From: a virus
Taxonomy: Duplodnaviria > Caudoviricetes
Virus record (IMG/VR): IMGVR_UViG_3300042556_002563
Coordinates: 1 to 61,904 of that record
Direction: 5' to 3' (one strand)
DNA length: 61,904 nt
Below, piece by piece: positions 17,887 through 58,950 of the stretch (its first letter is position 1; every line of letters starts with the position of its first letter). The notes under the pieces were generated by a model, which saw only the letters and a program-made list of their open reading frames with translations, had not been told where the DNA came from and made no database searches. The translations under genes were made by a program, and so were the position numbers.

Positions 17887-18144
17887 TTAAAAATTACCGC
17901 CGTCTAAAACGTACTCAAGCCACGTGGTGAGATCGGCCGACAGCACCCATTCTTGTTTCGTTTCAAGCACCAATACTACCATGCCCGCGCGACGCCGAGC
18001 AACTGGAATAGCGTTTAAATCGGTCATGTTACTTACTGCCCGATAACCCCCGCTGCCGTATTTATCGATATGGGTGGGGAACTGGTCTTCCTCTGCGCCG
18101 GGAACAATAGGGGCGCCGACATTTGTGCCGCGAATAAATGTCAT
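17887..18144 (-). CDS. Small virion protein (85 aa), ends VLDGGNF
   Basis: ATG 18144 coupled to the upstream TAA; GGY..V.....L.AIP..RR..GM.V.V motif. Confidence 0.7.
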   Translation of the reverse strand: MTFIRGTNVGAPIVPGAEEDQFPTHIDKYGSGGYRAVSNMTDLNAIPVARRRAGMVVLVLETKQEWVLSADLTTWLEYVLDGGNF

Positions 18145-21100: not shown

Positions 21101-21257
21101 TCGGCGTATCGGGCGAGCCGTGTGCCTGCGAAACAACCGCTAGCGTTGTATGCCACTGATACGGGTAGCCCGGCCACGCATCATTTTGCGGCCCATACGC
21201 ATATGGCACGGTCTGTGCCATAGTGAACCGCAGTATTTTTGTCGGTTGAAAGGACAT
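18144..21257 (-). CDS. Long collagen-like fibre protein (1037 aa)
   Basis: ~480 aa of almost uninterrupted G-X-Y, strongly G-X-T; Mtd-N-like module and Ig-like C-terminus. Confidence 0.85.
19335..20770 (-). repeat. Collagen G-X-Y coding repeat with 9-bp periodicity
   Basis: GAT/GVT/GET/GPT triplets throughout. Confidence 0.9.
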
Positions 21258-40688: not shown

Positions 40689-41978
40689 TTACCGCGTACG
40701 CAGCGACCGCGCATTGTCTGTGATATGCGACGGGAAGAACCCAGAAGTGCTCTCTGGGATCACCCAGATATGCGCAAGATCCGGGGCCAGATCGGCGAGC
40801 TTGTTGTGATAGAACTCAACACGATCCCGCTTGAACGAAGGCATTTTCTTCTCGTGCCAGATTTCGAGCATCGCTTTCAACTGCGTACCGCCAGCCGCCT
40901 TGTCCCGCGTCATAGTCTTGACGCGGTTGATGTACGTCGTCAGGAACGTCGTGCACAACGACAAGTGCCTGAAATACTGTGACACGTCAGAAGTTACCGT
41001 GACGTGAAGCATCTTCTCCACAGTCTGCGCGGTGTTCTTCGTGTTAAGCAAGATGTTCGGCGTGCAGTCATTGAACATCTGCTCGACAACAGTCGAGTTC
41101 ACAAAACCAGCGGCCTCAAACTTGTCGATAAACATGGCCAACCCGCGCAGCATGTCGCCGCCAAGGCTTTCGGCGCACCGCCAATGTGCAGAAGTTTGCG
41201 ATACAAGAAACAGCACCCGCTCCAGCACGCCCTTGCCGTACTTGTCGTAAATCTCCTCAAGCGCATACGGAACCTTGATGTTCGGATAAGCAGCTCGGCC
41301 GCGGCTGTCCGTAGACATCTCAAGCCCAACGGCCCGAACACTCTCCAAAATCTCGTCGATCTTCGGGTCGTTTGACGCCTTACGGGCCTTGTAAATATCT
41401 AACTGCGCGTGCGGCCGCGTTCTGTAATTGCACGTCGAGTAGATCGTGGCTTCTTCTTCCACAACCTCAACAATCGTAACCTCGCACAATACAGCCGCTT
41501 CGCCGTTTTCAATCGACGCCAAAACACGGTGTGCGCCGTCAGCCACGCGCGCAAAAACCGCAGTCACGACACCCTGCGCGTTGACTACTTTACGAATCGT
41601 AATCAGCGGCATGCGCCGCGCCTTTCGGACAGGAAAACAAACCATTTCCGCAACGTGTGGGTAATCGCAACGCTTGTTGCGGCACCACTCCTCGTCCAAC
41701 GTCATAGCGGTCGTCGGCACCGCCATAACTGCCCTGCCGTCGGGCGCGATGTTTTCCCGGCGGCAATAGTCATCTGTCGTGGCGATATTGATCTCGGCCT
41801 GCTGATAAAGCGCCAGCATCTGCTCCAACGACAACGATGCCGTCTGCAGAATTTCATCGTTCGCCGTACGCGGCAGATTCTTGAACGTGTACTCGACCTC
41901 CTTATTAAACTTGCAACGAACGGTGAACGGCTTTTCAGCCTTCGGCATTGCCGGCACAACCGCATTCGAATTGACCAT
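40689..41978 (-). CDS. ParB/Srx-like N-terminal domain protein
   Basis: P.ITI.....VADGAHR..A....EEA..Y...N pattern. Confidence 0.6.
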   Translation of the reverse strand: MVNSNAVVPAMPKAEKPFTVRCKFNKEVEYTFKNLPRTANDEILQTASLSLEQMLALYQQAEINIATTDDYCRRENIAPDGRAVMAVPTTAMTLDEEWCRNKRCDYPHVAEMVCFPVRKARRMPLITIRKVVNAQGVVTAVFARVADGAHRVLASIENGEAAVLCEVTIVEVVEEEATIYSTCNYRTRPHAQLDIYKARKASNDPKIDEILESVRAVGLEMSTDSRGRAAYPNIKVPYALEEIYDKYGKGVLERVLFLVSQTSAHWRCAESLGGDMLRGLAMFIDKFEAAGFVNSTVVEQMFNDCTPNILLNTKNTAQTVEKMLHVTVTSDVSQYFRHLSLCTTFLTTYINRVKTMTRDKAAGGTQLKAMLEIWHEKKMPSFKRDRVEFYHNKLADLAPDLAHIWVIPESTSGFFPSHITDNARSLRTR

Positions 41979-43585: not shown

Positions 43586-46500
43586 CTACTCAGAAAAAAT
43601 CCACTCCATGCCCAAAGCCTTTGCGGCATCAGGCTTTAGCTTCTCCCCCCAATGCACAAAAACGTCTCTGTCCATGCCAAAGTGGTACGGACCAGCGCCC
43701 TTGATCAGAGTGCCGTCCAACCTCCGCGGCCAGAATTCAACGTCGTCAACCATGCACTTGGGAATTACGGATTTATAAACACGTTCAGCGTGCTCAAAAG
43801 GCACTATCAGCACAATGGCGTCGTGAATCTGCAGCGCGATCTTGTAATCAATGTCCGGGTTATCATTCCGGTACTGACAAAAATTCGCTAAAGCGATAGA
43901 CACAGCATCGGCTACCCCGCCTTGAATCGGGAAGTTCTGTGCCTGCCGTTCTTGTTCACCGCGGACAGACCGCTCACTAGACGACACGAACCGCCGAAAC
44001 CGCCCGTACGGGCCGACAATCCAGCCGGGGTCCTGCGACCGCGATCGGCACTCAGCCAGAAACTCTTTCGTGCCGGGGTAGGCTTTGAAGTAGGCGTCGA
44101 TCATGCGCTGGCAGTCATCAGCAGTAACGTCAACGCCCTCTTCTTTGCACTGCCGGGCGATGGCTTCCGGGCCGCGGCCATACGGAATACCAAAGTTCAC
44201 GTTTTTGGCCGCAATACGTAGGCCCTTCTTGCCCGCCGCAACCAGCCCGCTTTTTGTAGGTTCAACGCCTTGGAGATTGAACGTCTTAACCGCCTGCTGA
44301 CTGTGGATGTCGTAGTGGTCGGGATGGTTCTCCGGCAGAAGATTTCGCCGGACGTGCTCAATCATATCTTTATCCTGCGACAGCCACGCCAGCACCGCCA
44401 GCTCAGCGCCAGTCAAGTCCGTCTCAATTCCGACATGACCCTCGGGCACACGAAGAATCGACCGTACAGGATGTTTGTAGTGTTCCTTGCCAATTATTCT
44501 TTTGTAGTCGTCTTCTCGGCGGCTACTGAGATTTTGCAAAGGCGGACGGGAACTAGAGGCGCGGCCGGTTTCTTTCGTCTGGAATAAATGTGTGCGAACC
44601 TTGCCGTCGGAATGAACGCACCCAACGAGCCCTTTTTCATAAGCGAAATTTCCGTTTTCGTCTGTTTCAAAATCACCGTCCTCGTTTTCAGACGGTTTGC
44701 GTAATACCGACTGTAGCACCTGACTCGCGAACTTATAATCGCGAATCTTTGCTGCTGTCGCGTTGTCGTGGCCCAGAATACCGAGACTTTCCTTGTCTGT
44801 GCTGGGCGTTGCCGTATCTTGGTTAATTCCGCGCCAGCCCATCTCGTTCCACAACACAGGCCGTTTACCTGTTGTCTTAATCGGCCGAAGATTGAGCAGC
44901 CGCGCGTCTTCAGGGACAACCGGAGCATTGGTGTACCGATTAGCAAACGTGCGCCCAAACAACGCAATAGAAAGCTGTGGCTGCGACTTGGGGTTAAACG
45001 CCGGCCAGTTCAGCTCTGCCCGAATCTCAGCTAACAACCGGTCCTGCGTGTGCATAAACAGCGTTGTTAGCTCGTCGGCCCTATTTCTATCAATAACCAT
45101 GCCGGTCATTTCCATCTCTAGAAACGCCAGCGATGCGTTATGCGCTGTCCAATACGGCATCCAGCAATCGTGCCCGTACATGTCGTGACGCAACAAACCA
45201 TCTGCCCCGTTAGTGCCATAAAACTTCATGGCGATTCTGCGAGTCACGTCAGCGTCATAAGACGCGTACGGATGAAGCACGTGGGCCGGACATTCGCCGT
45301 AACCGCCGACTTCCCCGGCTTTAAGCTTATTTTCCGCCCGGTACTTCTTTTTCCACTTATCCAGCGGCTCCCAATATGTGGGCGCTGTCGTGAACTTCAT
45401 AGAACATTCGTCAAGGCCATAGCGGGCACACTCGTTAACCGCATGGTACATCAAGCTCGTGTCCCAGCCGCCGTGAAGTCTGTCATCTGGGTCATTTGCC
45501 GGCGCATATTCATCTCGGCAATCTACGCCAAATGCAATTAACCACGGAAGGTCAGCCCGGAGAAAGTGCCCGCCAACCCGCACATGGCGTTCTGGCGTGC
45601 TCTTGAGCAACCGCAGTAGCTCGCGCTGAACAACCTCAAGCCCCGGCTTAAATGCAATCGCGCCGCCCTGATGCCGTAAGACAATGGTCCGAGCCCATTT
45701 GTCCTTGTTCGACACCTGCACAGTCCGCAGATACGCGCCGGCCTCTGTCGGATACTCGCCGTGCCACTCACAGTCCACCGCGATAATATTTGCGTTTGGA
45801 TCTGGATCAGCCAGCATATCGTCAACCAGCTCGACCAGCGCGGCTTCAGTGTAAATATCGGCGTGGTCGACCTGTTCTTCTGTGTAAATCTGGTCGTCCA
45901 GCATCGCCTTGAACCGACCGATTTGCCCATTAAAGTCACCGGTCGCTTCTGGTTTGCGAACCACATAAGCCGGATGCATAACCGACATGACTTTGATTTC
46001 GCGTTTATTGCCGTCGGCGTCAAAAGCAGCCAGCGGTAATACACGACCAGCCAGTCCCGTTACGTTGCCTGCCGTACGCATAACCGCTTTGGCCGCGTCG
46101 TTACCAAGGCACAAAATGTAGTCAGGTTCAACGAGTCGAATTTCCTGCTCAAGCAAAATAGCGCAATCTTTAATCCACGCCGCCGGAACAGCTGTAATCT
46201 CTTCTGTGCCCGCTGAGAACTTACACGCCGAAGTTACATACCAATCGCGATAAGTTTCGTGCGGGACGCCTGCTTCGCGCAGTGTTTCCGCGAGCAGCAG
46301 CATGCCAGTACTGCCGACGTAATTTTGATTATTAAACTCAAACGTGCCCGGGATCTTGCCAATCACCATCACTTTGGCTTTTCGACGCGGGCCAAAGCGC
46401 GAAATCGGCTCTAAAAAATCTTCCGTCGTGTCACCCCATATGTGCCCCGGAAGAAACTGCGCTTCCACCTGCTTTGTCTTGAGCATCACGGGCATAGGAA

Positions 46501-46756
46501 ACAGCGGATGGTAGAGCGCGTCCCTATAAAGCTTGATTAACTGTTCCCCTACCGGAATGACTTTTTTCTTTTTAACCTCATTGACGTCAATTGCGTCGCC
46601 CATGTCGTTGGCGTGCGCAATAAAATCAGCGCCCGCTGGGGGCATGCCGGGTGCCGTCAGATCGACAAACCGAAACATTTCTTCCGTCAGCGCATCCCCC
46701 GTCTCGTCGTAGAGCGCCCGGGTCAGCCGGTGCGTCAACGCTACCTCAGACGACAT
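43586..46756 (-). CDS. polA: Family A DNA polymerase with N-terminal UDG-like domain (SPO1-type) and 3'-5' exonuclease
   Basis: UDG4-like GxxPG/YVG.TG/HPAY; exonuclease DCE, D, YASYD; polymerase TGR.SS..P.LQN, DLTGAE, R..AK..NFG..YG, QIHD. Confidence 0.93.
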   Translation of the reverse strand: MSSEVALTHRLTRALYDETGDALTEEMFRFVDLTAPGMPPAGADFIAHANDMGDAIDVNEVKKKKVIPVGEQLIKLYRDALYHPLFPMPVMLKTKQVEAQFLPGHIWGDTTEDFLEPISRFGPRRKAKVMVIGKIPGTFEFNNQNYVGSTGMLLLAETLREAGVPHETYRDWYVTSACKFSAGTEEITAVPAAWIKDCAILLEQEIRLVEPDYILCLGNDAAKAVMRTAGNVTGLAGRVLPLAAFDADGNKREIKVMSVMHPAYVVRKPEATGDFNGQIGRFKAMLDDQIYTEEQVDHADIYTEAALVELVDDMLADPDPNANIIAVDCEWHGEYPTEAGAYLRTVQVSNKDKWARTIVLRHQGGAIAFKPGLEVVQRELLRLLKSTPERHVRVGGHFLRADLPWLIAFGVDCRDEYAPANDPDDRLHGGWDTSLMYHAVNECARYGLDECSMKFTTAPTYWEPLDKWKKKYRAENKLKAGEVGGYGECPAHVLHPYASYDADVTRRIAMKFYGTNGADGLLRHDMYGHDCWMPYWTAHNASLAFLEMEMTGMVIDRNRADELTTLFMHTQDRLLAEIRAELNWPAFNPKSQPQLSIALFGRTFANRYTNAPVVPEDARLLNLRPIKTTGKRPVLWNEMGWRGINQDTATPSTDKESLGILGHDNATAAKIRDYKFASQVLQSVLRKPSENEDGDFETDENGNFAYEKGLVGCVHSDGKVRTHLFQTKETGRASSSRPPLQNLSSRREDDYKRIIGKEHYKHPVRSILRVPEGHVGIETDLTGAELAVLAWLSQDKDMIEHVRRNLLPENHPDHYDIHSQQAVKTFNLQGVEPTKSGLVAAGKKGLRIAAKNVNFGIPYGRGPEAIARQCKEEGVDVTADDCQRMIDAYFKAYPGTKEFLAECRSRSQDPGWIVGPYGRFRRFVSSSERSVRGEQERQAQNFPIQGGVADAVSIALANFCQYRNDNPDIDYKIALQIHDAIVLIVPFEHAERVYKSVIPKCMVDDVEFWPRRLDGTLIKGAGPYHFGMDRDVFVHWGEKLKPDAAKALGMEWIFSE

Positions 46757-47844: not shown

Positions 47845-49503
47845 TCAGGCAAGACCGTTGTCTTCAGCAAATCGATCTACCGGCATAATACGCCGGCGGG
47901 GCTCTCTCGCTGCTGTGGGAGCCACGGGCGCAATATCACCGCGCCGCAGAATCTTTCTGGCTGTTTCAGACGCTGTGTATTCTTCATTCACCAGATGCAC
48001 GTCTACGATGTTGTCGTCCATGCGGACAAGTCCGCGGCGGCTGACAGGCACGTAAGCCCGAATCTTAGAGTAGTGAATCGTTGAAACTTTTGTTTCCTGA
48101 TCGCGCGTATTGATGCACAGACACGCGTGAACATTCTCAGCAAACGACTTTGAACCGGCCGCGTCAAGATGCCCGGTGTACTTGTACGCCGGCTTGCTCT
48201 TAATATCCGCGCCGGCCAACTGATGGGCTAGCATAACAGTAGCGCCGTACGGCACCGCTATCTGAGTCCGCAGATCGTCGGGCACGTTCTTGATTGGCCG
48301 TGCGAGGTTCTCTACATACCGCCCGCGCTTATCGTTTGCCAACTCGCGCTCTACCAAAATGCTCGCATGGTCAACAAACACAGCGCCAATATCCATGTTG
48401 CGCGTTTCTGCCACCTTCTCGATCACAGCGGCAATCTCGGGGACACCGCCGTCACCGTGGTTACCAGTCTCGATGTTCTTAGAAAAGTCCAGAAACAAGA
48501 AATGCTGATTGAACCACTCCAGCATGGCGTTCCACCGATCCCGCTCACACAGCATGATCTCGCCGTTACGGTTCTCGGGCAATTCGCGCTCGTACGGCTT
48601 CAGCGTGTCACGCGTAGAAAAATGCTCCCAAAACCGGGCATTCTGCGTGAACAGATTCCGGTCGATATGCGACGCTGCAGACCAGAATAAACCGTTCATC
48701 TTCTCTGCGCCGTCTTCGTAGCAGATATACACAGAGAGTTTGTTTTCTCCGCGAACGAAAAACTGCTGGGCCATTCGCACCGCCGCAGATGCCATCATTG
48801 TCGTCTTGCCGCCCTCGAACGGACCCAAGATGCCAATCAGGTCGCCTTTGCGAAATCCGCCAAGATACTGGTCAATCCACGGAATCGTGGTCGGTTCGGG
48901 CGGCGGCGCCAGTGCGATTTCGGCGCCAAACTCGGGCGCGTGGGCGGCATTGACAATCTCGCGACCCAAATACTGGATCGACTTAGCTTTCTTTGCGAAG
49001 TCCTGCAGCCGGGCTTCGAAATCAACGACAACCGTATCTCTGGCCGAATTAACTGTGTGCTGCAGCTCGTGCTTCAGGATGCGGACATTTACAAAACGCC
49101 GCAGAATTGTTTCCTGATATTGCCGCTCCGCTCGTTTTGCTGCATTCTCAAGCGCTGGCGCCGCAAAAGAGTCTGCGATAAACGCAACCAGCTCTTCCAG
49201 CTCCTCAGCGCGCATCGTCGGAATCGCGTCATTCGCGTACCATGCCCGTAACTGCGTCACGAGCGCTATTTCATTTACTGCGCCATGCCGCTGGTACAGC
49301 CCGACAGCCGCGGCATACAAATAGATAAACGGCGATTCTTTGCCGCCGCCTAAAAAATGCGTTGGCGCCACACCAACGTTTTGGGCATCTTTCAGCAATC
49401 CGGGATTACACAGGAATCCGCGAACCATCTCTTTGATTTCGGCATAAGTCAGAACATCATCATGATGATTTTGTGTTTCGCGCGCTCCGTCGCCACTAGC
49501 CAT
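47845..49503 (-). CDS. DnaB-like (SF4) replicative helicase
   Basis: GGFRKGDL...GPFEGGKTT, YE, FVDH, AHQL, K.R arginine finger. Confidence 0.85.
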   Translation of the reverse strand: MASGDGARETQNHHDDVLTYAEIKEMVRGFLCNPGLLKDAQNVGVAPTHFLGGGKESPFIYLYAAAVGLYQRHGAVNEIALVTQLRAWYANDAIPTMRAEELEELVAFIADSFAAPALENAAKRAERQYQETILRRFVNVRILKHELQHTVNSARDTVVVDFEARLQDFAKKAKSIQYLGREIVNAAHAPEFGAEIALAPPPEPTTIPWIDQYLGGFRKGDLIGILGPFEGGKTTMMASAAVRMAQQFFVRGENKLSVYICYEDGAEKMNGLFWSAASHIDRNLFTQNARFWEHFSTRDTLKPYERELPENRNGEIMLCERDRWNAMLEWFNQHFLFLDFSKNIETGNHGDGGVPEIAAVIEKVAETRNMDIGAVFVDHASILVERELANDKRGRYVENLARPIKNVPDDLRTQIAVPYGATVMLAHQLAGADIKSKPAYKYTGHLDAAGSKSFAENVHACLCINTRDQETKVSTIHYSKIRAYVPVSRRGLVRMDDNIVDVHLVNEEYTASETARKILRRGDIAPVAPTAAREPRRRIMPVDRFAEDNGLA

Positions 49504-50257
49504 TGTAAGTCCTCCAATGCTCACGAATTAGGCGGACAGCGGCGCGTAATTCATCTGTGACCCACCATGCTGTGTCCTCATCTTTAATAACTTGATCGTA
49601 TAGCGGCTGATTAGCCTCATAATCTAACGACGCGCGCCACAGATAGCGCTCAATCGCGCTGTCGCAGTTGGCGGCGGCGGCCCACGCGTGCCGAAAAAAC
49701 GGCGGCGCGGACACGTAGCTCTCGTCGCAGAGCACGTAGAGCGTCTGGTCCTCTTTCGAGAACTTGAACACGTTCGTGCTTTTGTACCGCGAATTGATCG
49801 TATGCCCGGCCACAGTTGCTTTATGAGCAATCGTTCGGGGCGCTTCCGCGCAGTACAGGTTGTATATTTTTTGCGATGAGCCGCCGTATAACATGGAAGG
49901 CCGCATCGTCGGCATTTTGTCGAGCCCGCCGGCAAGCGTGATTTCTGCTGCCGGAGAGAAGTGAGCGTACACCCACATTCCGGGATTTGCGCTCACCATC
50001 TCGACGGCTCTGGCTGCTTTGGCCCACACAGACGAATGCCGTACGCCAAAGTTATCTTTCCCGCCGTCCCACGCTGGCCGTCTTAACGTGTGCGCCCGGG
50101 CATCCCAATCAACCGCGGCCTCGTTTAAATAAATAAACTGATACCGCATGTACGCGGCAAGTTGTTCCGTATTCAGCTGGGTGTGCCAATCATGCGCTAG
50201 CAACGCATCATGTGGCTCCACCGCCTCCGCTATTGCGCCAACTGCGTTGTGCGTCAT
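49496..50257 (-). CDS. Hypothetical protein between two helicases
   Basis: ORF overlapping both neighbours; start re-assigned to ATG 50257. Confidence 0.6.
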   Translation of the reverse strand: MTHNAVGAIAEAVEPHDALLAHDWHTQLNTEQLAAYMRYQFIYLNEAAVDWDARAHTLRRPAWDGGKDNFGVRHSSVWAKAARAVEMVSANPGMWVYAHFSPAAEITLAGGLDKMPTMRPSMLYGGSSQKIYNLYCAEAPRTIAHKATVAGHTINSRYKSTNVFKFSKEDQTLYVLCDESYVSAPPFFRHAWAAAANCDSAIERYLWRASLDYEANQPLYDQVIKDEDTAWWVTDELRAAVRLIREHWRTYNG

Positions 50258-51746
50258 GCCAATTTTGTTCCCATCCAAGGAGTTTATAGCTGTTGCGCCG
50301 ACCCAAACTCTTGCGGTAAAAAGTCGGGTCGAATGTGTCCATGCAATCCAAAACTTCGCCAAACTCTTTACGTGTTCCGTCCGGCGCTGTGTAAATACGA
50401 CTCACGCGCCCCGGACCCTGCACGTCTACGATATCGCTATCTCGGTCATCAGCGCGAACCAGCACGCTTAACTGCTCAAAGTCCACGCCGGTTGCCCACA
50501 CGTCCGTAGCAATTACACGTTTTAATGTGCCGGCCTCAAACGCAGACCGCATATCATGTTTCTGAAACTCATTTAACGGCTTGTAGTCCTCCGGTAAGAG
50601 TTTCTTCTTTCTGTACGCCGAGCAGTCGTAAGGCGCCATGTTGCCGTATACAAGACTGAATTCAGGCAACAACGAGCCAAGGTGCACCGCGTGCTCAATC
50701 GTTTCTACAAGTATCAGAATCTGATGCGATTCAGGGTACTCGCGCACCGCGTCGGCTATGATGCCGTTTCGCTCACGGTTTGTCCAGATGCCGTATCGTT
50801 TTCTCGCGACACGGTTGCCGTAGCGCTCCGCTGGGTTCGAACGCAGCCGCATAGGCAGCCAATTCACCTTGACCGGCACGACCAGCCCAAGATCCACAGC
50901 GTTCTGGTAGGTCAGCTCAAACACCATTGGGCCAAACAGCGGCTCAAGCACGGCATGGGCGTTGTCCATACGCGCGTAGGGTGTGGCGCTCATGCCATAG
51001 TTCCTACTGTGCCTATACCGCGCAGCCAACGCTGTCGAAAAATTGACCGTGGCCAGCTGATGCACTTCGTCAGCAAACAGAAAGTCTGCGTCGCCATCGG
51101 AGTGCGCCAAACTGCCAGCGGTAATCACCGTGACGCGTTCCCACTGCTTCCATCCGTCGCCTACGCGACCGACCTTCGGCAGCAGCCGTTTAAGGCTGCG
51201 TACAATACGCTCGGCTACGTCTACGCTCTTTGTAACAACGTGGATTTTGGCTTCAGGAAACAAAAGCGCTGCTGCCCCAATCAAAGTCGTCTTACCGAAA
51301 CCGGTGACGGCTTTGATAATTCCGCACGGGGCGCGAGCAATCGTCTGTAAACATTCTTCCTGCCGCGGTCGAAATTCAATTCGGCCGGCAAGATTCTCCC
51401 ATTGCGGCACATAGCAGTTCGGCCGCTTGCGTTCGACTGTGTTTTCACGCAACGACGTTTGGCAACCAAGTTTGCGCAATCTGTTTACCATGCGTGCCAA
51501 GTAACCGCTCAGCACAATCACGTGACCATTTTCAACACGAAACAGTTTGTACTCTTTCGTCTGAAAAAACATGCGCTGGCCCGTGATCGGATCTCTACGC
51601 GCTTGCCCGTGCACCTGCTCGATATGCGAATAGCGCAAATCGTGTGTAAGCTTTTTAACCAGCTCGTCAGGTAAAGGTGCGTTAGCTGGCCCCGTCAGCG
51701 TTAATACATTGCCGGCACGATTAATTACTACAGGTTGCGGGGCCAT
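50208..51746 (-). CDS. SF2 DExH helicase (UvsW/XPB-like)
   Basis: RPRQ, TGFGKT, DEVH, SATP, TGVD, Q..GR..R. Confidence 0.9.
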   Translation of the reverse strand: MAPQPVVINRAGNVLTLTGPANAPLPDELVKKLTHDLRYSHIEQVHGQARRDPITGQRMFFQTKEYKLFRVENGHVIVLSGYLARMVNRLRKLGCQTSLRENTVERKRPNCYVPQWENLAGRIEFRPRQEECLQTIARAPCGIIKAVTGFGKTTLIGAAALLFPEAKIHVVTKSVDVAERIVRSLKRLLPKVGRVGDGWKQWERVTVITAGSLAHSDGDADFLFADEVHQLATVNFSTALAARYRHSRNYGMSATPYARMDNAHAVLEPLFGPMVFELTYQNAVDLGLVVPVKVNWLPMRLRSNPAERYGNRVARKRYGIWTNRERNGIIADAVREYPESHQILILVETIEHAVHLGSLLPEFSLVYGNMAPYDCSAYRKKKLLPEDYKPLNEFQKHDMRSAFEAGTLKRVIATDVWATGVDFEQLSVLVRADDRDSDIVDVQGPGRVSRIYTAPDGTRKEFGEVLDCMDTFDPTFYRKSLGRRNSYKLLGWEQNWHDAQRSWRNSGGGGAT

Positions 51747-51747
51747 G

Positions 51748-52242
51748 CTAGTTGTCGTCCCCGGGCCCGGCGACTGGTTCGACTGAAATGACTTCAAATG
51801 TCCCATACTTTTCCTGCGCGTTATTGAACGGGGAAAACCCGCGATACTTGCCAACGAGCGTCAGCAAGTGCACAAAGTCCGCTAATGGTATCTCATCCGG
51901 CAAGACAGCAGACAAGACCACCGTGTCGCCGGGCCGAAAAGCTTCGTGGAGCGCAAAATGACTACGCGTGTTTTCGCCCTGCGGCTGCACCACGGTCCGC
52001 CGCCAGTCATTGCGTGGCTCGCCGACTACTACCGGACACCAGTCAATTTTTTTGACTTCAGCGTGATGCTTATTCGCAATCTTTGCCGCGTACCGCATGC
52101 ACGACAGCCACGCTGAAGGCAAAAACATCACGCGCTGACTGGGGTCGCGATCAAAGCAGAAAATAACCTGTCCGTGTTTACGTTTTTTTGCCGCGCCCAT
52201 ACATACGCGGTTGAAACGCAGAGTAACCGTGATTTCTCGCAT
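51748..52242 (-). CDS. Stand-alone RAMP (Cas7-group-like) protein
   Basis: ITVTLRF....G; FDRD...VMFLPSAW...MR.AA; HEAF.PG; LL..VG.YRG.......YGTFEV (degenerate G-loop). Confidence 0.6.
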   Translation of the reverse strand: MREITVTLRFNRVCMGAAKKRKHGQVIFCFDRDPSQRVMFLPSAWLSCMRYAAKIANKHHAEVKKIDWCPVVVGEPRNDWRRTVVQPQGENTRSHFALHEAFRPGDTVVLSAVLPDEIPLADFVHLLTLVGKYRGFSPFNNAQEKYGTFEVISVEPVAGPGDDN

Positions 52243-52248
52243 ACTACA

Positions 52249-53184
52249 CTATTTTTTACTCATGTGCTCGTCGTACGCTGCGCATTCTGCCGGTGTTTTA
52301 AAAAACATGTTCGGTACAAATAGGCCGTCTTTTACACCAGCGCGTGTCTCCAACGCGGCCAGCCAGTTATACCGCAGATATCTTATAAACGCTTGCGACG
52401 CGCGCAAATCACCTTTGGCCCCGCCCCCAGCGGCGTTATACACACGATACAGAAAGTTCGCTGGCGCCTGCGCGTCCACGGCCTCTGGCAGTTGCGTTTT
52501 CCACGTAGACAACACCGTCTGACAACGAAACTCTCGGGCCTTTGTTACAAGACACGCCGGTTGCGACACACGCGCCTGTGTTTGCGGCGTAAGCCCCAGA
52601 TATAGCTCCAGTTTTGCCGCGCGATCAGGCGAACGGCGATCTACGTACCAGCGCGGATCAATTATCGTTGTTAGCAACTTGGCTGCGTCTGGCTCCGCCA
52701 CCGTAGGTATAAACAACAATGCTTTGCGCGCTGGGTGAATGTGAAAGTACGTTTCCGCGGCATCATCGAAAATGAACTGATTGCGCAACATTCGCGCCAG
52801 CATGGCGTACGTCGGATAATCGTGCAACGACAACGTGTGCCACCCGCCGGCTGCTGCCGCGATATCCACGCTGCGCATGCGTGACAGCACAATACTGGGC
52901 TCATGCAATTCAGCCGCTTCGTGCAGAATATTGGGCCCGGCAATTTCTACCGAGCGCAACTCCTTATTATTGCGCTTTAAATACAGCGCGCTAATAAGCT
53001 CTGCGTTTTGCGCCATACCGATAACGCGCACAACAGTGCCTGTGCCGTGAATTACTGGCGCCAGCAAAAACTCGTCAACCAACTGGTTAGAATTAACCGG
53101 CGGCCCAATACCAACCGAGTACCACACCCGTTTATCGGTGGCGGTATACAGTTTAATGATATTTTCATCGGGTGTGTTGACCAT
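52249..53184 (-). CDS. Degenerate IS110-transposase/Nop-fold (Tas-like) protein
   Basis: HP...L.FIP.V....AAKLL..I.DP.WY......KL..YLGL.P matches the IS110 Transposase_20 helix-hairpin-helix region; the N-terminus has RuvC-like strand order but no DEDD acids. Confidence 0.6.
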   Translation of the reverse strand: MVNTPDENIIKLYTATDKRVWYSVGIGPPVNSNQLVDEFLLAPVIHGTGTVVRVIGMAQNAELISALYLKRNNKELRSVEIAGPNILHEAAELHEPSIVLSRMRSVDIAAAAGGWHTLSLHDYPTYAMLARMLRNQFIFDDAAETYFHIHPARKALLFIPTVAEPDAAKLLTTIIDPRWYVDRRSPDRAAKLELYLGLTPQTQARVSQPACLVTKAREFRCQTVLSTWKTQLPEAVDAQAPANFLYRVYNAAGGGAKGDLRASQAFIRYLRYNWLAALETRAGVKDGLFVPNMFFKTPAECAAYDEHMSKK

Positions 53185-55321
53185 GTCGCAGCTCCGGCGC
53201 TTCAAGTTGTATGGTAGATTCGAACAAGTGCGACAAATTCGACGCGTGTGTGACTAACAAACACTGTAACCCCTTTGCGGTAGACAAGTCACGCAATTTC
53301 TCAAGGACTGGCGCTAACGCTTGAATACGCGGCTGATCCAAAGAAGCAGTCGGCTCGTCCAGCGCGAGCAATCCGATTTCTTCTGCAAACATGGCGTTGA
53401 CGGCGACGCGAAACGCAAGAGCCAAGACGGTCTTTTGCCCAATCGATAAACGCTGAGCGACTTGCCGTCGTCCGTCAAAGAATTCTGCGACGAACGTAGG
53501 TGTTCCATCCGTAGCCACCTTTACAACAAAATTTACGCAAAAAATCTGTAGCAACTCATTAATAGCTGACTCAAGCCGCTGAAGGTTTCGCTGCGCTACA
53601 AGCCGCGGGGCGTTTTTGAGCGCTTCCCTAGCTGACTCCGCAAGCCCGGTCCATTTACGCAGTTGTGCCGCCGTCTGCTCTTGCTGCTGTGCGAGATCAC
53701 GCTGCTCCTCGATACGCTTCATTTCAAACATCAGCTGCGTGCGCTGCTCTGACAACTCGTTCCGGTTCTTCAACAGCTGCTGCCGCGTCTGCAAGTTTGT
53801 CTGGGCTAAATGCGCGTCGGACTGGGTAACAACAGCAGTTTTGATACTTTCTTCCAGCTGCTCGCGCCGGTCTCGCAACCCGGACAGCACGCCCGCCAGT
53901 TTGGCTTTGTTCTCGCGGGCTTGTTGTGCCAGAGGCATGATTTCCTGCTTTACCTGCTGGAACTGCTCGTAGTCGCCCACGGCTTGTTGCAGCTCATCTT
54001 CAGACGCTGCCGGCGGCGCAACAACAGTCAAATCACGCTCAGAGTCATCCAACCGCTTTTCTTGGCCTGCCAGCTCTTCTTCTTTCTTCAACCACTGCGC
54101 ATGCGCCTGCTCGGCATCCTTCTTTTCCATCCAGCTCGCGTCCAGCAAGATGTGCTGCCCGCTGAGTTTTGTCAGAATATCGTGCTGTTCTTTAACCTGC
54201 GCTGTTAGCTGTGACGTTGGCGTATGACACGTCGGGCACTCGGCAATGCCTTCGGCTGTAAACAGCTTGACAAACTTCTCAGCTTCTTTGATCTGCCGCT
54301 CATTATTTTCTAGCTGCCGGTACAACTGCTCGGCTGTCTCGCCAGCCGGCTTTGGCGGTTCCGGGTTCTTCTCGCGCAACCCGGCAATATACGCCCGCTG
54401 CTCCTGAAGCTTTTCTTTCAGCTTGGCCACATGCTTGTAGCTTTCCCAGTGCCCTAGCGCCGTCCGGGCGGCAGCATACGCTTCTTCTTGCCCGTTAGCC
54501 GCTTCGGTTAACGCAACAAGATCCTCTTCATACTGCTTGCCGGCGGATACAGCCGCATCAAGCTGGGCCTGAGCGGCTGCTTCCTGCTGCGCAAGCTTCG
54601 CTAGCTCTTGCCCAGCCTTCTCGCGTTCCTCCCACTGCCGAATCGTCACTTGGTCGGCCTGCATGCTGGTAAGGAAGTCATCCAGCGTCGGGAGCTTGGC
54701 TATCTGCGCCGCTAGCTTCGCTGCGTCATGGTGCAGCTGCTCTAGCTGCGCCTGAAGCACACCCGGCGTCTGCACGACCTCCGGTATTGATATCTTTGCC
54801 AGCGCCTTGCCAATCACGTCCTGACACTTGTCCGCCTTGGCCGTGTTAAACAGCCGCTGGAAGAACTTGTCCGTGTCAGTCTGGTTGTCGTCGATAAACG
54901 AAAATATATCCGTCTGGCCAACGATGATAAACCGGCTGATAAACTTGGAGTCAACGCCCAAGAGTTTCTCAATGCCGGCCGTTACAGACTTGTCACCGCG
55001 GCCAACTTCTTTGCCGTCCACAGTCAGGATCGACTGCTCCTTCTCGGGGAGCAGATGGCGCGTCACGACAGCCATATGGCCGTTATGTTCAAACTCCAGC
55101 GTGGCGTACGACGGCTCACCCTCTTTGGCGTACTGGGACACATTGTCCGCTTTCACGCCGTAATTGGGATTCTCGCCCGTCAGCAACCATCGGATCGCGC
55201 CAAATAGACTGCTCTTCCCAGAACCGTTCTCACCCAGAATAGCAACGAGCCCGCGAGTAAACTCACATACTCGATACCTGTGGTGCACCCAGTTCTTCAC
55301 TTCCAGCCGCAAGAGCTGCAT
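53165..55321 (-). CDS. sbcC: SbcC/Rad50-like (gp46) ABC ATPase
   Basis: GENGSGKS, Q-loop, coiled coils with a CPTC zinc hook, LSIGQ signature, LDEPT, VTH. Confidence 0.92.
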   Translation of the reverse strand: MQLLRLEVKNWVHHRYRVCEFTRGLVAILGENGSGKSSLFGAIRWLLTGENPNYGVKADNVSQYAKEGEPSYATLEFEHNGHMAVVTRHLLPEKEQSILTVDGKEVGRGDKSVTAGIEKLLGVDSKFISRFIIVGQTDIFSFIDDNQTDTDKFFQRLFNTAKADKCQDVIGKALAKISIPEVVQTPGVLQAQLEQLHHDAAKLAAQIAKLPTLDDFLTSMQADQVTIRQWEEREKAGQELAKLAQQEAAAQAQLDAAVSAGKQYEEDLVALTEAANGQEEAYAAARTALGHWESYKHVAKLKEKLQEQRAYIAGLREKNPEPPKPAGETAEQLYRQLENNERQIKEAEKFVKLFTAEGIAECPTCHTPTSQLTAQVKEQHDILTKLSGQHILLDASWMEKKDAEQAHAQWLKKEEELAGQEKRLDDSERDLTVVAPPAASEDELQQAVGDYEQFQQVKQEIMPLAQQARENKAKLAGVLSGLRDRREQLEESIKTAVVTQSDAHLAQTNLQTRQQLLKNRNELSEQRTQLMFEMKRIEEQRDLAQQQEQTAAQLRKWTGLAESAREALKNAPRLVAQRNLQRLESAINELLQIFCVNFVVKVATDGTPTFVAEFFDGRRQVAQRLSIGQKTVLALAFRVAVNAMFAEEIGLLALDEPTASLDQPRIQALAPVLEKLRDLSTAKGLQCLLVTHASNLSHLFESTIQLEAPELRHGQHTR

Positions 55322-56435
55322 CTTCAAGTTCTCCCGTCATGTACTTAGAAAACTGTACATCAAGCTCTTTACCCGCATCCTCCGCGACCAACAAGGCCGC
55401 GGCTAGTTTGTACGCCTCTGAATTTTCACCGACTAGATCCGCCAGCGCGCCCAGCAAGTCGTTCTTGGCACTGTCGCGGGTCGCTGTTTTGGAGGTACTG
55501 TATTTCTCGTTAATTGCTTCACACGCAATATTCGCGAAATCGCCTACCGCTGTCATCAGCCGTAAATACGCGTCCGGCAGCTGCTTATCGAACTTGATTC
55601 GAACCAGCGGCTTGTTGATGTTCGCCGGCAGCGTATCGTCCAGCTGGTCATTGATATCTTTGAGCAGCTGGCCGGCACACAGGGAGTCTAGCGTGTCTTG
55701 GTCTTTGACAACGTAGTTCAGGAACCTGCGCGTCCTAAGCTGAATCGGCGTAAAGACAATCTCACCAGTCGTGGGGATACGGCCAATTACGAAGAAGAAC
55801 TTATCAGGGCTCTCGCTCATGTCTTGCATGCAGGTCGAGCCGGGAGACAGCATCGTAACTGTTTTTCCTTGCGCGTTGGCGCTGGTAACTGTTTTGGTGA
55901 CATGAAAATCACCATTGAGCACAGTCGTCACGTGGTAAACATCTGTAAGCTCACAGTCAGTGCGGCCGAGATTCCCCATGAAGTCTTTCCAGACCTGATG
56001 GGTGATCAAGATATCTGTATCCTGCGGTACGCGCGTAAACGCGTCTTGAATGTCGCCGCGGGGCAGCCAGTCAAAGCCAGCAACCTTGACGCCATTAATA
56101 TCAAAACTGGCTTCGTGCATGTAAATTGGCCAGTCATGCGCGCTCAACCACGGGGCGTTACGGTCGAACTCGTGGTTACCCTGAATGTAGTACACGGGCA
56201 CACCGGCATCCCGCATTCGGGACAAACCTTCGAAGAGCCGGGCAATCGGGCGCGCAGAGTTGCTTTTCTTCTCTAATACGTCGCCGCCAAGTATGAGCGG
56301 CAGACGGCACGCGATGCAGTAATCGACAATCTGCTCAAAGCTGTAGTACGCGTCGCCGTAGATCCCCGGACGACTCGACCACGCGCCGTCCTCAAGATGA
56401 AGGTCGGCGCAGAAAACAAACAAGGGGGTCGACAC
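55263..56435 (-). CDS. sbcD: SbcD/Mre11-like (gp47) metallophosphoesterase nuclease
   Basis: DLH, GD, GNHE, THQ, GDFH, PGS motifs. Confidence 0.9.
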   Translation of the reverse strand: MSTPLFVFCADLHLEDGAWSSRPGIYGDAYYSFEQIVDYCIACRLPLILGGDVLEKKSNSARPIARLFEGLSRMRDAGVPVYYIQGNHEFDRNAPWLSAHDWPIYMHEASFDINGVKVAGFDWLPRGDIQDAFTRVPQDTDILITHQVWKDFMGNLGRTDCELTDVYHVTTVLNGDFHVTKTVTSANAQGKTVTMLSPGSTCMQDMSESPDKFFFVIGRIPTTGEIVFTPIQLRTRRFLNYVVKDQDTLDSLCAGQLLKDINDQLDDTLPANINKPLVRIKFDKQLPDAYLRLMTAVGDFANIACEAINEKYSTSKTATRDSAKNDLLGALADLVGENSEAYKLAAALLVAEDAGKELDVQFSKYMTGELEDAALAAGSEELGAPQVSSM

Positions 56436-56444
56436 AAATAACTC

Positions 56445-57101
56445 CTAGTCCTCGTCATCGTCGGTATCGTTGCCGTAAAACCAATTTAAGAAATCATCCT
56501 CGTCTTCTTCGTCGTCGTACGCATTCAACTCGTCGTCATACTGCCCGTCTAGCGACTGCGTAAAATAATCGGCAAAATCTTCTTTGTCATTTGGCGGTTG
56601 CCAAAACTTGTTTTTGATATCAAGCGTTGTTTCGTTCGACAGCAGTTTTTTCAGAGACTGCAAATACGTCGATAACACGTCTGGCAGTGCGCCGTGATTG
56701 AGATTAAACGCGCTTTTTATTGTTTTGCCCCACGTCGCCGGTTCGCCGCTAAACCAGCCGTCGTCTTTTTTGATTTGGCCCGCGCCCGTTGTTTTGACGA
56801 TCTTGAAAAACGACAAGGTGAACAAATCGGCAAGATCGTCAAGATTTGGAATTGGCGGCAGTTGTTTTTCCCTGAATTTATGCTCCGCCGCTAGCGCGTG
56901 CAATGTGCTGTCAAATTCCGCATGCATTTCACGCAAACTGCGCGCCATTCTTGCAGCCGTGACAACTGATTTGACATTAGCTTCAGTTGGTGCCATCAAG
57001 TGAAAAATCGATTGCAGCATGTCGTAGTCGCGATGCATTGCGGCTACGTAAACGCGGATGAAATGCTTTTCAACCGTCGACATGTTGTGCGGATCAAGCA
57101 T
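56445..57101 (-). CDS. Hypothetical protein with highly acidic C-terminus
   Basis: D/E-rich last ~45 aa; start uncertain. Confidence 0.6.
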   Translation of the reverse strand: MLDPHNMSTVEKHFIRVYVAAMHRDYDMLQSIFHLMAPTEANVKSVVTAARMARSLREMHAEFDSTLHALAAEHKFREKQLPPIPNLDDLADLFTLSFFKIVKTTGAGQIKKDDGWFSGEPATWGKTIKSAFNLNHGALPDVLSTYLQSLKKLLSNETTLDIKNKFWQPPNDKEDFADYFTQSLDGQYDDELNAYDDEEDEDDFLNWFYGNDTDDDED

Positions 57102-57124
57102 GCGGCACCAACGCAAAAAGTTAC

Positions 57125-57331
57125 CTACAGTTTAGCAGCGTCACGACGATTAAACGCTGTTTCTGGCAGGGAAATAGTGTTTAACATTTCGTGATAACCT
57201 GCTTTTGCCCAGTCTACCCTGTAATGTGGTTTTTTGGCGCGCGCAACGCACTCAAGAATTGTAAGATGCAGCAACGGCCTGTCGCCAATTTGTAGCGTTA
57301 GCGTATCACCAACTTTATGCTTGTACATCAT
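57125..57331 (-). CDS. Small hypothetical protein (YK..VGD N-terminus)
   Basis: ORF fits the tiling. Confidence 0.5.
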   Translation of the reverse strand: MMYKHKVGDTLTLQIGDRPLLHLTILECVARAKKPHYRVDWAKAGYHEMLNTISLPETAFNRRDAAKL

Positions 57332-57671
57332 CCTTGTTTTTTGATCGGCGGTTGTGCGTTCTTACGCGGTGACAGTTAGAACAGACAAGATCACACTTTG
57401 CAATTTCTGCAAACAACACGGGGCGGCTACAGCTTCTGTTTAAAATATCAGCAACGTTTGCTGTTTTTTCGCCCCGCACGTGGTCGAAATCCATAACGTA
57501 ATACGGATACGCCACGCCGCAATCCACGCACGATTTGGATTCTTTATAGGCTCTGACCTCTAAACGCAATTTGGACGTTGAAACCTTCGAACGGTTAATC
57601 TGCTCCTCGCGGTGGCGTTCATACCACCGCCGATTCGCTTCCTTGCGTTTTTCTGGATCAGAGTAAGGCAT
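57315..57671 (-). CDS. HNH endonuclease
   Basis: CVDCG...DFDH...EIAKCDLVCSNCHR.RT. Confidence 0.88.
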   Translation of the reverse strand: MPYSDPEKRKEANRRWYERHREEQINRSKVSTSKLRLEVRAYKESKSCVDCGVAYPYYVMDFDHVRGEKTANVADILNRSCSRPVLFAEIAKCDLVCSNCHRVRTHNRRSKNKDDVQA

Positions 57672-57713
57672 CCTTGCCTCCACCGTTATTGCGTGATTAT
57701 CGCTGGCTATACG

Positions 57714-58085
57714 CTATCGTGTGATTTTTTTACGCCGCTTGGGCAACAGTGCAAGCTGGTTGTACCACCAACGCGAGGCGGCGTACATATAAAAATCAGT
57801 CAATTCAGCGTCAAGATTGCCATTAGATCCGAGCGCGTCGTACACGTAAAACCAGTCTGTAATTGCGTCTAATTTCCACGCCTTAATCGCTTTGAGGTCG
57901 TCAGCGATTTCCTTTTTGAGTACGCCAACTTCAGGCGCGTACTCAGTCATGATGCGACAAATATGTTTAATCAGATGGTTACGAAGCGGCGCTCCGATTA
58001 AACGCAGATCTTTTTTCTGCGTAGCCGTCAGATTTTTTTCCTTAGCCGCCCGATAGGTTTGATGCACTAAATTGCGTTTTTGCAT
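57714..58085 (-). CDS. Hypothetical protein
   Basis: ORF directly downstream of the tRNA. Confidence 0.55.
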   Translation of the reverse strand: MQKRNLVHQTYRAAKEKNLTATQKKDLRLIGAPLRNHLIKHICRIMTEYAPEVGVLKKEIADDLKAIKAWKLDAITDWFYVYDALGSNGNLDAELTDFYMYAASRWWYNQLALLPKRRKKITR

Positions 58086-58125
58086 ACAACTTTCCAAAAG
58101 TGAGATAAAACAAGTTAACGACCCA

Positions 58126-58196
58126 ATGCCCGACTAGGATTCGAACCTAGACAAAGAAAATCAAAATTTCTTGTGCTACCGTTACACCATCGGGCA
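58126..58196 (-). tRNA. tRNA-Gln(UUG), CCA not encoded
   Basis: TGCCCGA/TCGGGCA acceptor, D arm GGTGTAACGGTAGCAC, anticodon arm AGAAA-TTTTGAT-TTTCT, T arm CTAGG-TTCGAAT-CCTAG. Confidence 0.93.
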
Positions 58197-58224
58197 ACGC
58201 GCTGCATCCTTGCATATACGATTT

Positions 58225-58368
58225 CTGATACGCGGTTTAGGATCCGTCTTGAAACCCCTATCAGCTTCGCAGTTACAAACCCACTCGCGACTTGGGTGTC
58301 GGACCGCCGAATGATTGGCAGCGGCTTTTGGAGACCGGGAACAGGGGCGCCGACACGCCCGTCGTGAA
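58225..58368. ncRNA. Candidate structured non-coding RNA upstream of the tRNA
   Basis: Largest non-coding gap in the window; two stem-loops at 58225-58264 and 58284-58368. Confidence 0.4.
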
Positions 58369-58386
58369 CGAACTTTGACCTGTTGA

Positions 58387-58950
58387 CTACACCAGCGACA
58401 CAAATTTTTTGGCAAGCGCAATGGATGCAAGGTTATCGTTCTCAGCGTTGTGCGATACGCCAGTGTCGATATTGAATACCTTGCGTAAATTGTCGAGGTT
58501 GCAACCGCCCTGAAACTTGTTCGCGGCGGCAAACAACCGTGCAGATGCGCAGGTGTCCAGTGCTGGATTGGTGAAGTACTCACCCCATTTTTCTTCCGGC
58601 AGCAAGTAGTGCTGCAAGAATTTTACGTCAAAAGGCACATTGTGCCCCGCAGGTACAAGACGCCGATGGCCAGTGACCGTCAGCGCCTCTTTGATGAACA
58701 GCGTAAAAAGCTCAGCTGCTTCTTGAACTGAAAAGCCATTGGCGTCGTTATCCGACAAGTCAATCTGATTGACTTCCATGGCTTTTGGGTGGACCGTGTA
58801 ATTTGCGTGCTTTACCTTGACGTACATGCCCGGATCGAACTCGTGGATCCGAATGATATCAAAGTGCCTGTCGGTCAAAATTGCCGACACGGTGAGCAGA
58901 CTGTATTGCGGTGTTAGCCCACCCGTTTCAGTGTCAAAAAACAAATACAC
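58387..58950 (-). CDS. DEDDh 3'-5' exonuclease (DnaQ/RNase T-like)
   Basis: FFDTETGG, GHNVPFD, LDT, HNAEND. Confidence 0.9.
   Translation of the reverse strand: MYLFFDTETGGLTPQYSLLTVSAILTDRHFDIIRIHEFDPGMYVKVKHANYTVHPKAMEVNQIDLSDNDANGFSVQEAAELFTLFIKEALTVTGHRRLVPAGHNVPFDVKFLQHYLLPEEKWGEYFTNPALDTCASARLFAAANKFQGGCNLDNLRKVFNIDTGVSHNAENDNLASIALAKKFVSLV

Follow-up and report, generated by a model that had tools for sequence, protein, structure and literature searches.

Introduction

TasR, the effector of TIGR-Tas systems, combines a RuvC domain with a Nop-type domain, an architecture related to that of IS110 and Nop5 (Faure et al. 2025, PMC12045711). The Tas, IS110 and Nop5 relatives treated in the papers cited here all work with a guide or scaffold RNA. 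In this study, we describe P0001, a gene of a tailed virus whose product appears to be built on the same plan. The gene lies on IMG/VR record IMGVR_UViG_3300042556_002563, which comprises 61,904 bases, is estimated to be 30% complete, and is referred to in its whole length as the window.

The coiled coil of TasR dimerises and sets the two-spacer geometry (PMC12045711). In TaTasR, it is made of two helices, K109-D138 and A142-H168, of 27-30 residues each (Xu et al., bioRxiv 10.64898/2026.09.09.750476). The same preprint describes catalytically inactive TasRs that bind DNA, such as PateTasR and CsTasR, and reports that dead TasR and TasA are RNA-guided repressors. The processing of tigRNA by TasH is assigned to a Tyr/His dyad in its Nop domain (10.64898/2026.09.09.750476; PMC13421893). 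Closest to the present case is one "divergent tas clade" without coiled coil or array, found in densely packed viral genomes. In the parts of the preprint that were available, this array-less clade is left open, an "alternative guide RNA source" being among the options, and no gene context, partner or function is given. Among the papers searched, array-less forms were found in the literature on TIGR-Tas only in Xu et al., and none names both TasR and SbcCD. A second point of comparison is provided by the VIPR systems of phages, which are described as comprising a minimal RAMP (Vipr), Vap, and a vrRNA of YNNGG repeats (bioRxiv 10.64898/2026.04.26.720920).

P0001 is a variant in the Tas/IS110/Nop superfamily and was probably glimpsed, without context or function, in the preprint of Xu et al. 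Its family likewise appears to lack coiled coil and array, occurs in dense viral genomes, and is probably the array-less divergent tas clade described there. On balance we favour, at slightly better than an even bet, the view that P0001 is a nuclease-dead TasR-like protein, lacking array and coiled coil, that serves as a non-catalytic nucleic-acid-binding subunit of the phage recombination and replication machinery. The same modest confidence covers the whole of this reading, including vertical inheritance as a core gene of a replication/recombination operon in an uncultured lineage of ~200-kb lake-water phages. For the probable clade of Xu et al., the analysis supplies a genomic setting, a candidate partner and negative evidence from whole genomes. 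It includes a helicase-anchored test for empty sites, a profile comparison with TasH, scans of two whole genomes for RNA, and two relatives that lack the RAMP beside the target.

Predicted fold and domain layout of P0001

The target gene and the predicted parts of its product are as follows.

52249-53184, minus strand: target gene P0001, 311 amino acids, ATG at 53184, stop codon (52249-52251) included
52831-53184, minus strand: residues 1-118, N-domain with a predicted RuvC/RNase H-like fold, lacking a conserved acidic tetrad
52738-52830, minus strand: residues 119-149, where the secondary structure of the model has two short helices, at 123-134 and 141-148, in the position of the Tas coiled coil
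52252-52737, minus strand: residues 150-311, predicted helical C-domain of Nop / IS110-Tnp type
52555-52773, minus strand: residues 138-210, IS110/Tas-like motif HP..FIP..AA.LL..DPRWY..YLGL.P, paired by hhalign with SpTasH 123-190

The AlphaFold2 model of P0001 (mean pLDDT 87.8, pTM 0.86, 47 sequences in the alignment) predicts a RuvC-fold N-domain followed by a C-domain of the Nop / IS110-Tnp type, and both folds were found when the model was tested for them. An earlier reading, made from the sequence alone, had singled out IIKLYT, VRVIG and VEIAGP as RuvC-like strands; they coincide with strands 9-14, 51-55 and 78-82 of the modelled N-domain. In a Foldseek search of the PDB, the top places were taken by TasR (9mty; E 6e-3, probability 1.00, TM score 0.42-0.45) and also by IS621 (8wt9 and 8wt6, probability 0.84-0.93), no match being at E <= 0.001. 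P0001 is closer to TasR than to IS110. The comparison with IS621 and TasR that the sequence-only reading had proposed gave a match in fold, whereas the sequence profiles were not significant.

The motif HP..L.FIP....AA.LL..I.DPRWY......L..YLGL.P (residues 150-200) hardly varies across the family, as represented by an alignment of 105 relatives that are 28-61% identical to P0001; all conservation figures below refer to this alignment. The whole alignment was compared by hhalign with 40 aligned members of the TasH family. The reference for SpTasH was SLPG_00018 of Salicola phage CGphi29 (accession from PMC13421893; E 1.4e-212 to 21kl), which is itself related to TasR 9mty at E 2e-17. The sole pairing joined residues 138-210 of P0001 to residues 123-190 of SpTasH; it is co-linear with the fold alignment and covers the IS110-like middle motif. 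The IS110 C-terminal motif recognised earlier is thus present, near-invariant and paired with TasH, but as a profile match it is not significant. Homology to Tas and IS110 is supported by the predicted fold and by this suggestive, though non-significant, motif match, and not by sequence statistics.

Between the two modelled domains there are only the helices 123-134 and 141-148, and ~62 of the 294 residues of 9mty_B are left unaligned against P0001; from the model and these unaligned residues, the ~60-residue coiled-coil dimerisation hairpin of Tas therefore appears to be absent or vestigial. P0001 differs in this from TasR (9MTY), from which it differs also in having no TIGR array of either kind, dual-repeat or stem-loop. 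The Nop5, Nop56 and Nop58 proteins, as described in PMC12045711, have an inactive RuvC-like N-domain joined to a Nop domain and serve as scaffolds, not as enzymes, in which P0001 would resemble them. In contrast to them, P0001 has no coiled coil, and neither P0001 nor five complete relatives contain a Pfam Nop domain (PF01798). No Nop5 chain was among the 50 rows listed in either of two VIA-align searches.

The likeness to TasR and IS110 could also be convergent or generic, P0001 then being an unrelated accessory factor of phage replication. Such a view draws on the lack of significant sequence or profile similarity, on Foldseek E values of only 6e-3 to 4e-2 at a TM score of 0.42, on the great frequency of RNase H-like N-domains, and on an ESM Atlas feature search that pointed to DUF4123 clusters (0.91-0.93). 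We nevertheless think it improbable. The top structural matches, every one a member of the Tas/IS110 family, extend over the two domains in unchanged order; the C-domain alone fits TasH with a root-mean-square deviation (rmsd) of 3.3-3.5 over 142-148 residues; and the only hhalign pairing falls, co-linear with the fold, on the hallmark motif of the family. DUF4123 was rejected, as PF13503 matches none of the 105 members at E <= 1, and the ESM Atlas score of 0.93 falls in a range that shuffled proteins sometimes reach.

Conservation of the family and of candidate catalytic residues

Homologues of P0001 number 318 at E <= 0.001. The 120 that were listed are 311-324 amino acids long and 57-100% identical, lie on contigs of up to ~213 kb, and carry no precomputed Pfam domain. 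When 1.84 billion representatives were searched exhaustively, 726 clusters matched at E <= 0.001, 179 of them at <= 1e-30. Longer fused forms were absent among proteins of 546-2000 amino acids, which is weak evidence. No match for P0001 was found among BFVD viral structures at E <= 0.001, and tblastn of 50,697 phage records returned none for P0001 or for its distant L043 homologue. The target is under strong purifying selection: the ratio of nonsynonymous to synonymous divergence (dN/dS) to the closest relative, L002, is 0.06 (dN 0.106, dS 1.76); in more distant pairs dS was saturated or not computable.

The N-domain contains no conserved DEDD or other acidic set, and no acidic column exceeds 76%. 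The position of D6 is acidic in 76% of relatives, and that of E80 holds E in 65% and Q in 24%; where strands 1 and 4 end, the residues are H/T/Y, D/A and G/T. After GLxP, S207 is kept in 21 of the 105 relatives and no SG is found. The acidic DEDD residues that had been reported missing are therefore missing from the family as a whole, as is an evident SG after GL.P. The verdict of the sequence-only reading that the protein is catalytically dead is supported by conservation. Compared with active TasR, P0001 lacks the four conserved acidic RuvC residues. Dead TasRs lack them as well, and thus the missing tetrad does not exclude P0001 from an inactive TasR subgroup. Compared with IS110 (IS621, 8WT6/8WT9; ISCro4, 9T56), it lacks DEDD, the catalytic serine and any match to PF01548 or PF02371, PF01548 being the DEDD/RuvC-like domain of IS110.

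Conservation is concentrated elsewhere. The conserved basic residues are K11, R53, R104, R178, R188, K191, R220, R247, R261 and R271, and the conserved polar and aromatic motifs are GGWH (113-116), D122, Y126, HP (150-151), DPRW (176-179) and E300. A further alternative is that P0001 is an enzyme with a new active site formed by H116, D122, Y126, H150, D176, R178 and E300, for example an RNase that needs no metal, or a structure-specific nuclease for the removal of primers or R-loops. These seven residues are kept in 91-98% of the divergent relatives, the reported processing of tigRNA by the Tyr/His dyad of TasH (10.64898/2026.09.09.750476; PMC13421893) offers a precedent, and there is no Pfam RuvC or EndoVII match in the five complete relatives. 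The TasH dyad (Y289/H296), however, has no conserved counterpart, since the position of Y304 holds Y in 61 and F in 38 of the 105 relatives and that of H307 holds H in 77, and the conserved motifs may equally be structural or binding residues. We regard a new enzyme as improbable.

Fixed position and non-mobility of the gene

The neighbours that bear on the history of the target gene are the following.

55263-56435, minus strand: SbcD/Mre11-like phosphoesterase (Pfam Metallophos 1.5e-07, phrog_100)
53165-55327, minus strand: SbcC/Rad50-like ATPase (Pfam SMC_N 2.2e-18, phrog_77 4.6e-37), its 3' end overlapping the start of the target
51748-52242, minus strand: orf164, predicted minimal Cas7/Csm3-like RAMP protein, the usual downstream neighbour
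50208-51854, minus strand: SF2 helicase (ResIII/DEAD, XPB/UvsW-like), 548 amino acids (Pfam ResIII 1.9e-08, phrog_16 5e-30, NCBIfam XPB 2e-04)

The N-termini of homologues agree with a start at the ATG at 53184, which has GGAG 7 nt upstream. The sbcC-like open reading frame (ORF) ends at 53165, giving a 20-nt overlap with the target gene, and only 6 nt separate the target stop from the start of orf164 at 52242. There is no non-coding end on either side, as had been claimed from the sequence, and the target gene is probably translationally coupled to sbcC.

This arrangement is fixed among relatives. With X for the target, the order SbcD-SbcC-X-(orf164)-SF2 helicase-orf288-DnaB-like-primase-PolA was found in all 42 viral loci retrieved with P0001, three of which are only 29-35% identical in the target protein. 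In one locus, L068 (target 29% identical), the operon order is kept but the helicase stands directly after the target. To avoid circularity, loci were also retrieved through the helicase; all 36 so obtained have SbcC, X, orf164 and helicase in this order. Many of their contigs are common to the 42-locus set. No empty-site allele, for which the sequence-only reading had suggested a search in relatives, occurs among them. The family profile detects exactly one copy in each of five related records, three of them complete. The target is a core gene and not an insertion sequence, being non-mobile because it is single-copy, keeps the same order in both sets of loci, shows no empty site and has no non-coding flanks.

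These observations contradict the possibility of a decayed or still active IS110-family insertion sequence lodged behind sbcC, to which we give practically no credence. Only the domain order and the motif speak for it. Against it stand the absence of DEDD, of the serine and of non-coding ends, the single copy in 5/5 records, the same site without an empty allele in 42/42 and 36/36 loci down to 29% identity, and the dN/dS of 0.06. IS110 elements differ further from the single-copy, syntenic target in their non-coding bridge-RNA region, none of which is present here. The earlier description of an exapted core gene stands as regards its core, non-mobile nature. The likeness is nearer to TasR, however, and an origin in the Tas lineage is no less probable than one from an insertion sequence. 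Relative to TasR, to which P0001 has no detectable sequence similarity, the gene occupies a fixed place in a replication/recombination operon rather than a stand-alone locus.

Search for a guide RNA

Tandem Repeats Finder (TRF) detected no repeat array in the window, only coding repeats of period 3-27, and the single Rfam match is a tRNA-Gln at 58126-58196 (minus strand), upstream of the operon. Gaps between ORFs in the window measure at most 289 nt; two listed gaps of 272 and 394 nt are really covered by orf288 and orf164. The scans were extended to two complete relatives with terminal repeats, G002 (204,621 bp) and G003 (203,910 bp). Both are 97% covered by ORFs, with no gap above 357 nt, and TRF found no non-coding array in either whole genome. 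Rfam detected only a tmRNA and 10 tRNAs in the whole of G002; complete relatives encode 5-10 tRNAs plus a tmRNA (G002, L051:13484-13838; G003:23302-23661). The conserved non-coding pieces that G002 and G003 share with the window comprise only tRNAs, tmRNA and terminator-like hairpins.

Repeats of the vrRNA type were sought as well. Five units of YNNGG with up to one mismatch do not occur in the window (0.24 expected), nor do four exact units, and five complete relatives gave 2 five-unit matches against 4 in a reversed control. Runs of GG at period 5 over at least 6 units are absent from the window and occur twice in G002 and once in G003, against shuffled means of 0.4-3.7. Within the gene itself, the variable low-confidence loops of P0001 (208-215 and 282-287) comprise 6-8 residues and are thus too short to leave room for an intragenic tigRNA. 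The window and the two whole relatives contain no TIGR array, no array of vrRNA type and, apart from the tRNAs, tmRNA and terminator-like hairpins, no conserved structured non-coding RNA.

The same data bear on the alternative that P0001 is a working RNA-guided Tas effector supplied with its guide from a source other than an adjacent array. The guide might be a primer, a transcript of the phage, a piece of a tRNA or tmRNA, an RNA of the host, or of a kind that escapes repeat finders. The protein would then bind matching DNA to repress or mark targets, possibly together with the Cas7-like protein. The Tas-type fold agrees with this, as do the reports that dead TasR and TasA are guided repressors and that another guide source is left open for the array-less clade (Xu et al. 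10.64898/2026.09.09.750476), the presence side by side of two guide-RNA-binding folds in the target and orf164, and the tRNAs and tmRNA that the phages encode. We nonetheless consider it unlikely, although it deserves to be kept in view. No array or conserved structured RNA was found, vrRNA-type YNNGG and period-5 GG repeats do not exceed controls, the dimerising coiled coil is missing, the loops cannot hold an intragenic tigRNA, and the strictly conserved place in a replication operon is unlike that of a conflict system.

Separately, G003 contains a tandem repeat with a period of 23 nt, which is not a multiple of three, at 18528-18607 (L057; 3.5 copies, 89% matches).

The adjacent RAMP protein

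The model of orf164, a protein of 164 amino acids, has a pLDDT of 88.6 and gave 96 Foldseek matches at E <= 0.001, the rows listed being CRISPR RAMP/Cas7-type effector complexes. By this model, orf164 is predicted to be a minimal RAMP of the Cas7/Csm3/Cmr4 type. It is more conserved than the target, with 60-93% identity among closer loci, and its features include a conserved glycine-rich stretch at the C-terminus as well as a D-x-P loop, which may recall the RAMP G-loop and the catalytic loop of Csm3. The RAMP is found next to the target in 41 of the 42 loci anchored on P0001 and in all 36 anchored on the helicase.

As compared by description, the locus resembles VIPR systems in having a small phage RAMP beside DNA-acting genes, some Vap proteins being helicases or nucleases. 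Unlike VIPR, it has no YNNGG tract in the window or in complete relatives, and no long intergenic flanks.

Taken together with the operon, this neighbourhood raises the idea that P0001 and the Cas7-like RAMP might form a ribonucleoprotein guided by phage transcripts or primer RNAs in place of a dedicated array, which would open or stabilise R-loops at origins or broken ends and hand them to SbcCD and the UvsW/XPB-like helicase. We rate this a long shot. If true, it would amount to RNA-guided initiation of replication or recombination, assembled from two scaffolds whose other known uses are all in defence and transposition.

The space between target and RAMP varies in a few relatives. In L026-L028, 0.26-1.7 kb of extra ORFs without a Pfam match intervene; those of L028 (10911-12648) encode 189, 270 and 120 amino acids. 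In L041 (10903-12977), three paralogous ORFs of 110-118 amino acids and a metallophosphoesterase take the place of the RAMP, and in L068 (8918-8951) there is no RAMP and the helicase comes straight after the target.

Proposed role and the points that weigh against it

In the reading that we favour, namely that P0001 is a non-catalytic TasR-like subunit of the recombination and replication machinery, the conserved basic surface of its C-domain would bind an intermediate that is branched, single-stranded or an RNA-DNA hybrid. Its partners in recombination-dependent replication or in the processing of breaks would be SbcCD, the SF2 helicase and, in most relatives, the Cas7-like RAMP next to it, and no dedicated guide-RNA array would be needed. 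Nucleic-acid binding, partners and cellular role are here what we infer. The five complete relatives contain no Pfam-detectable SSB, RuvC or Endonuclease_7, of which divergent versions may be missed, and this makes housekeeping roles for unassigned folds plausible.

With neither an array nor a nuclease, and seemingly no dimerising coil, the family is nevertheless retained as a core gene in hundreds of large freshwater phages, always behind SbcCD and usually next to the minimal Cas7-like protein. If P0001 still uses RNA, it would point to a new supply of guides and would connect RNA guidance with the replication or repair of DNA. If it uses none, an RNA-guided scaffold would have been taken over for housekeeping, and structural and engineering work would have in this protein a minimal Tas core made by nature.

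Several results weigh against this reading. Pfam, PHROGs, NCBIfam and PADLOC gave no match for P0001, and phmmer and the 105-member profile found only chance rows among PDB sequences (E 0.1-0.9). PF02371, the IS110 Tnp domain, matches a single member of the 105 (E 0.028), and is carried by 39 of 120 listed relatives of TasH versus 0 of 120 listed relatives of P0001. The hhalign pairing with SpTasH has a probability of 2.4% and an E value of 0.019, which is not significant, and the full-length fold match comes from a predicted model and has a high rmsd of 5.3 A. The assignment as dead derives from conservation, and not from residue superposition on a solved structure, and an active site of another kind could be made up of the near-invariant H116, D122, Y126, H150, D176, R178 and E300.

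The association with the RAMP is likewise open to objection. No RAMP gene adjoins the target in L041 and L068, and none was detected in the rest of these two incomplete records. Complex prediction for target plus orf164 gave a weak score of 0.39 (runs 0.00, 0.60 and 0.39; best control 0.00), with a contact agreement of at least 0% between runs and a partner pLDDT of at least 78. Of 80 solved complexes, 58 attain the pass mark, as do 2 of 110 mismatched pairs; at scores of <=0.60, only 7 of the 80 solved complexes and both passing mismatches do so.

Source and other features of the window

DNA of the window (49000-58500 queried) is present in 24 runs, all of them DNA and all from lake-water or freshwater metagenomes. 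No cultured relative was found among the 50,697 phage records, to any of which the window PolA is at most 27% identical. The long ORFs of the window are tightly packed and lie essentially all on the minus strand. The operon surroundings include, besides SbcCD and the SF2 helicase, a DnaB-like helicase, a DnaG-like primase, a UDG-PolA fusion and a RecA-like protein. A scan of 49000-58500 for promoters and terminators stayed at chance level (8 versus 6.5 and 13 versus 13.0).

The start codon of the SF2 helicase is uncertain, as its ORF overlaps orf164. The overlaps amount to ~107 nt between orf164 and the helicase (51748-52242 and 50208-51854) and ~155 nt between the helicase and orf288 (50208-51854 and 49496-50362). 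Both recur in relatives, and the true starts may be further downstream. In several relatives (L039:11335-13998, L028:12940-15699), the helicase is one ORF of 887-919 amino acids with an in-frame insert of ~340-370 amino acids that carries LAGLIDADG homing-endonuclease motifs (Pfam 7.9e-10) and is probably an intein; the 548-residue copy of the window is without it.

The family A DNA polymerase of the window (43589-46756, minus strand) has an N-terminal domain of the uracil-DNA glycosylase superfamily (Pfam UDG 3.2e-13) before its exonuclease and polymerase domains. Adjoining the RecA-like gene, the ORF at 40692-41978 (minus strand) has a sub-threshold match to DUF6551 (24.2 bits against a cut-off of 26.8). 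Two large ORFs, at 13504-16095 and 18144-21257 (minus strand), contain coding repeats of period 9/18/27 with collagen-like periodicity and presumably encode structural or fibre proteins.

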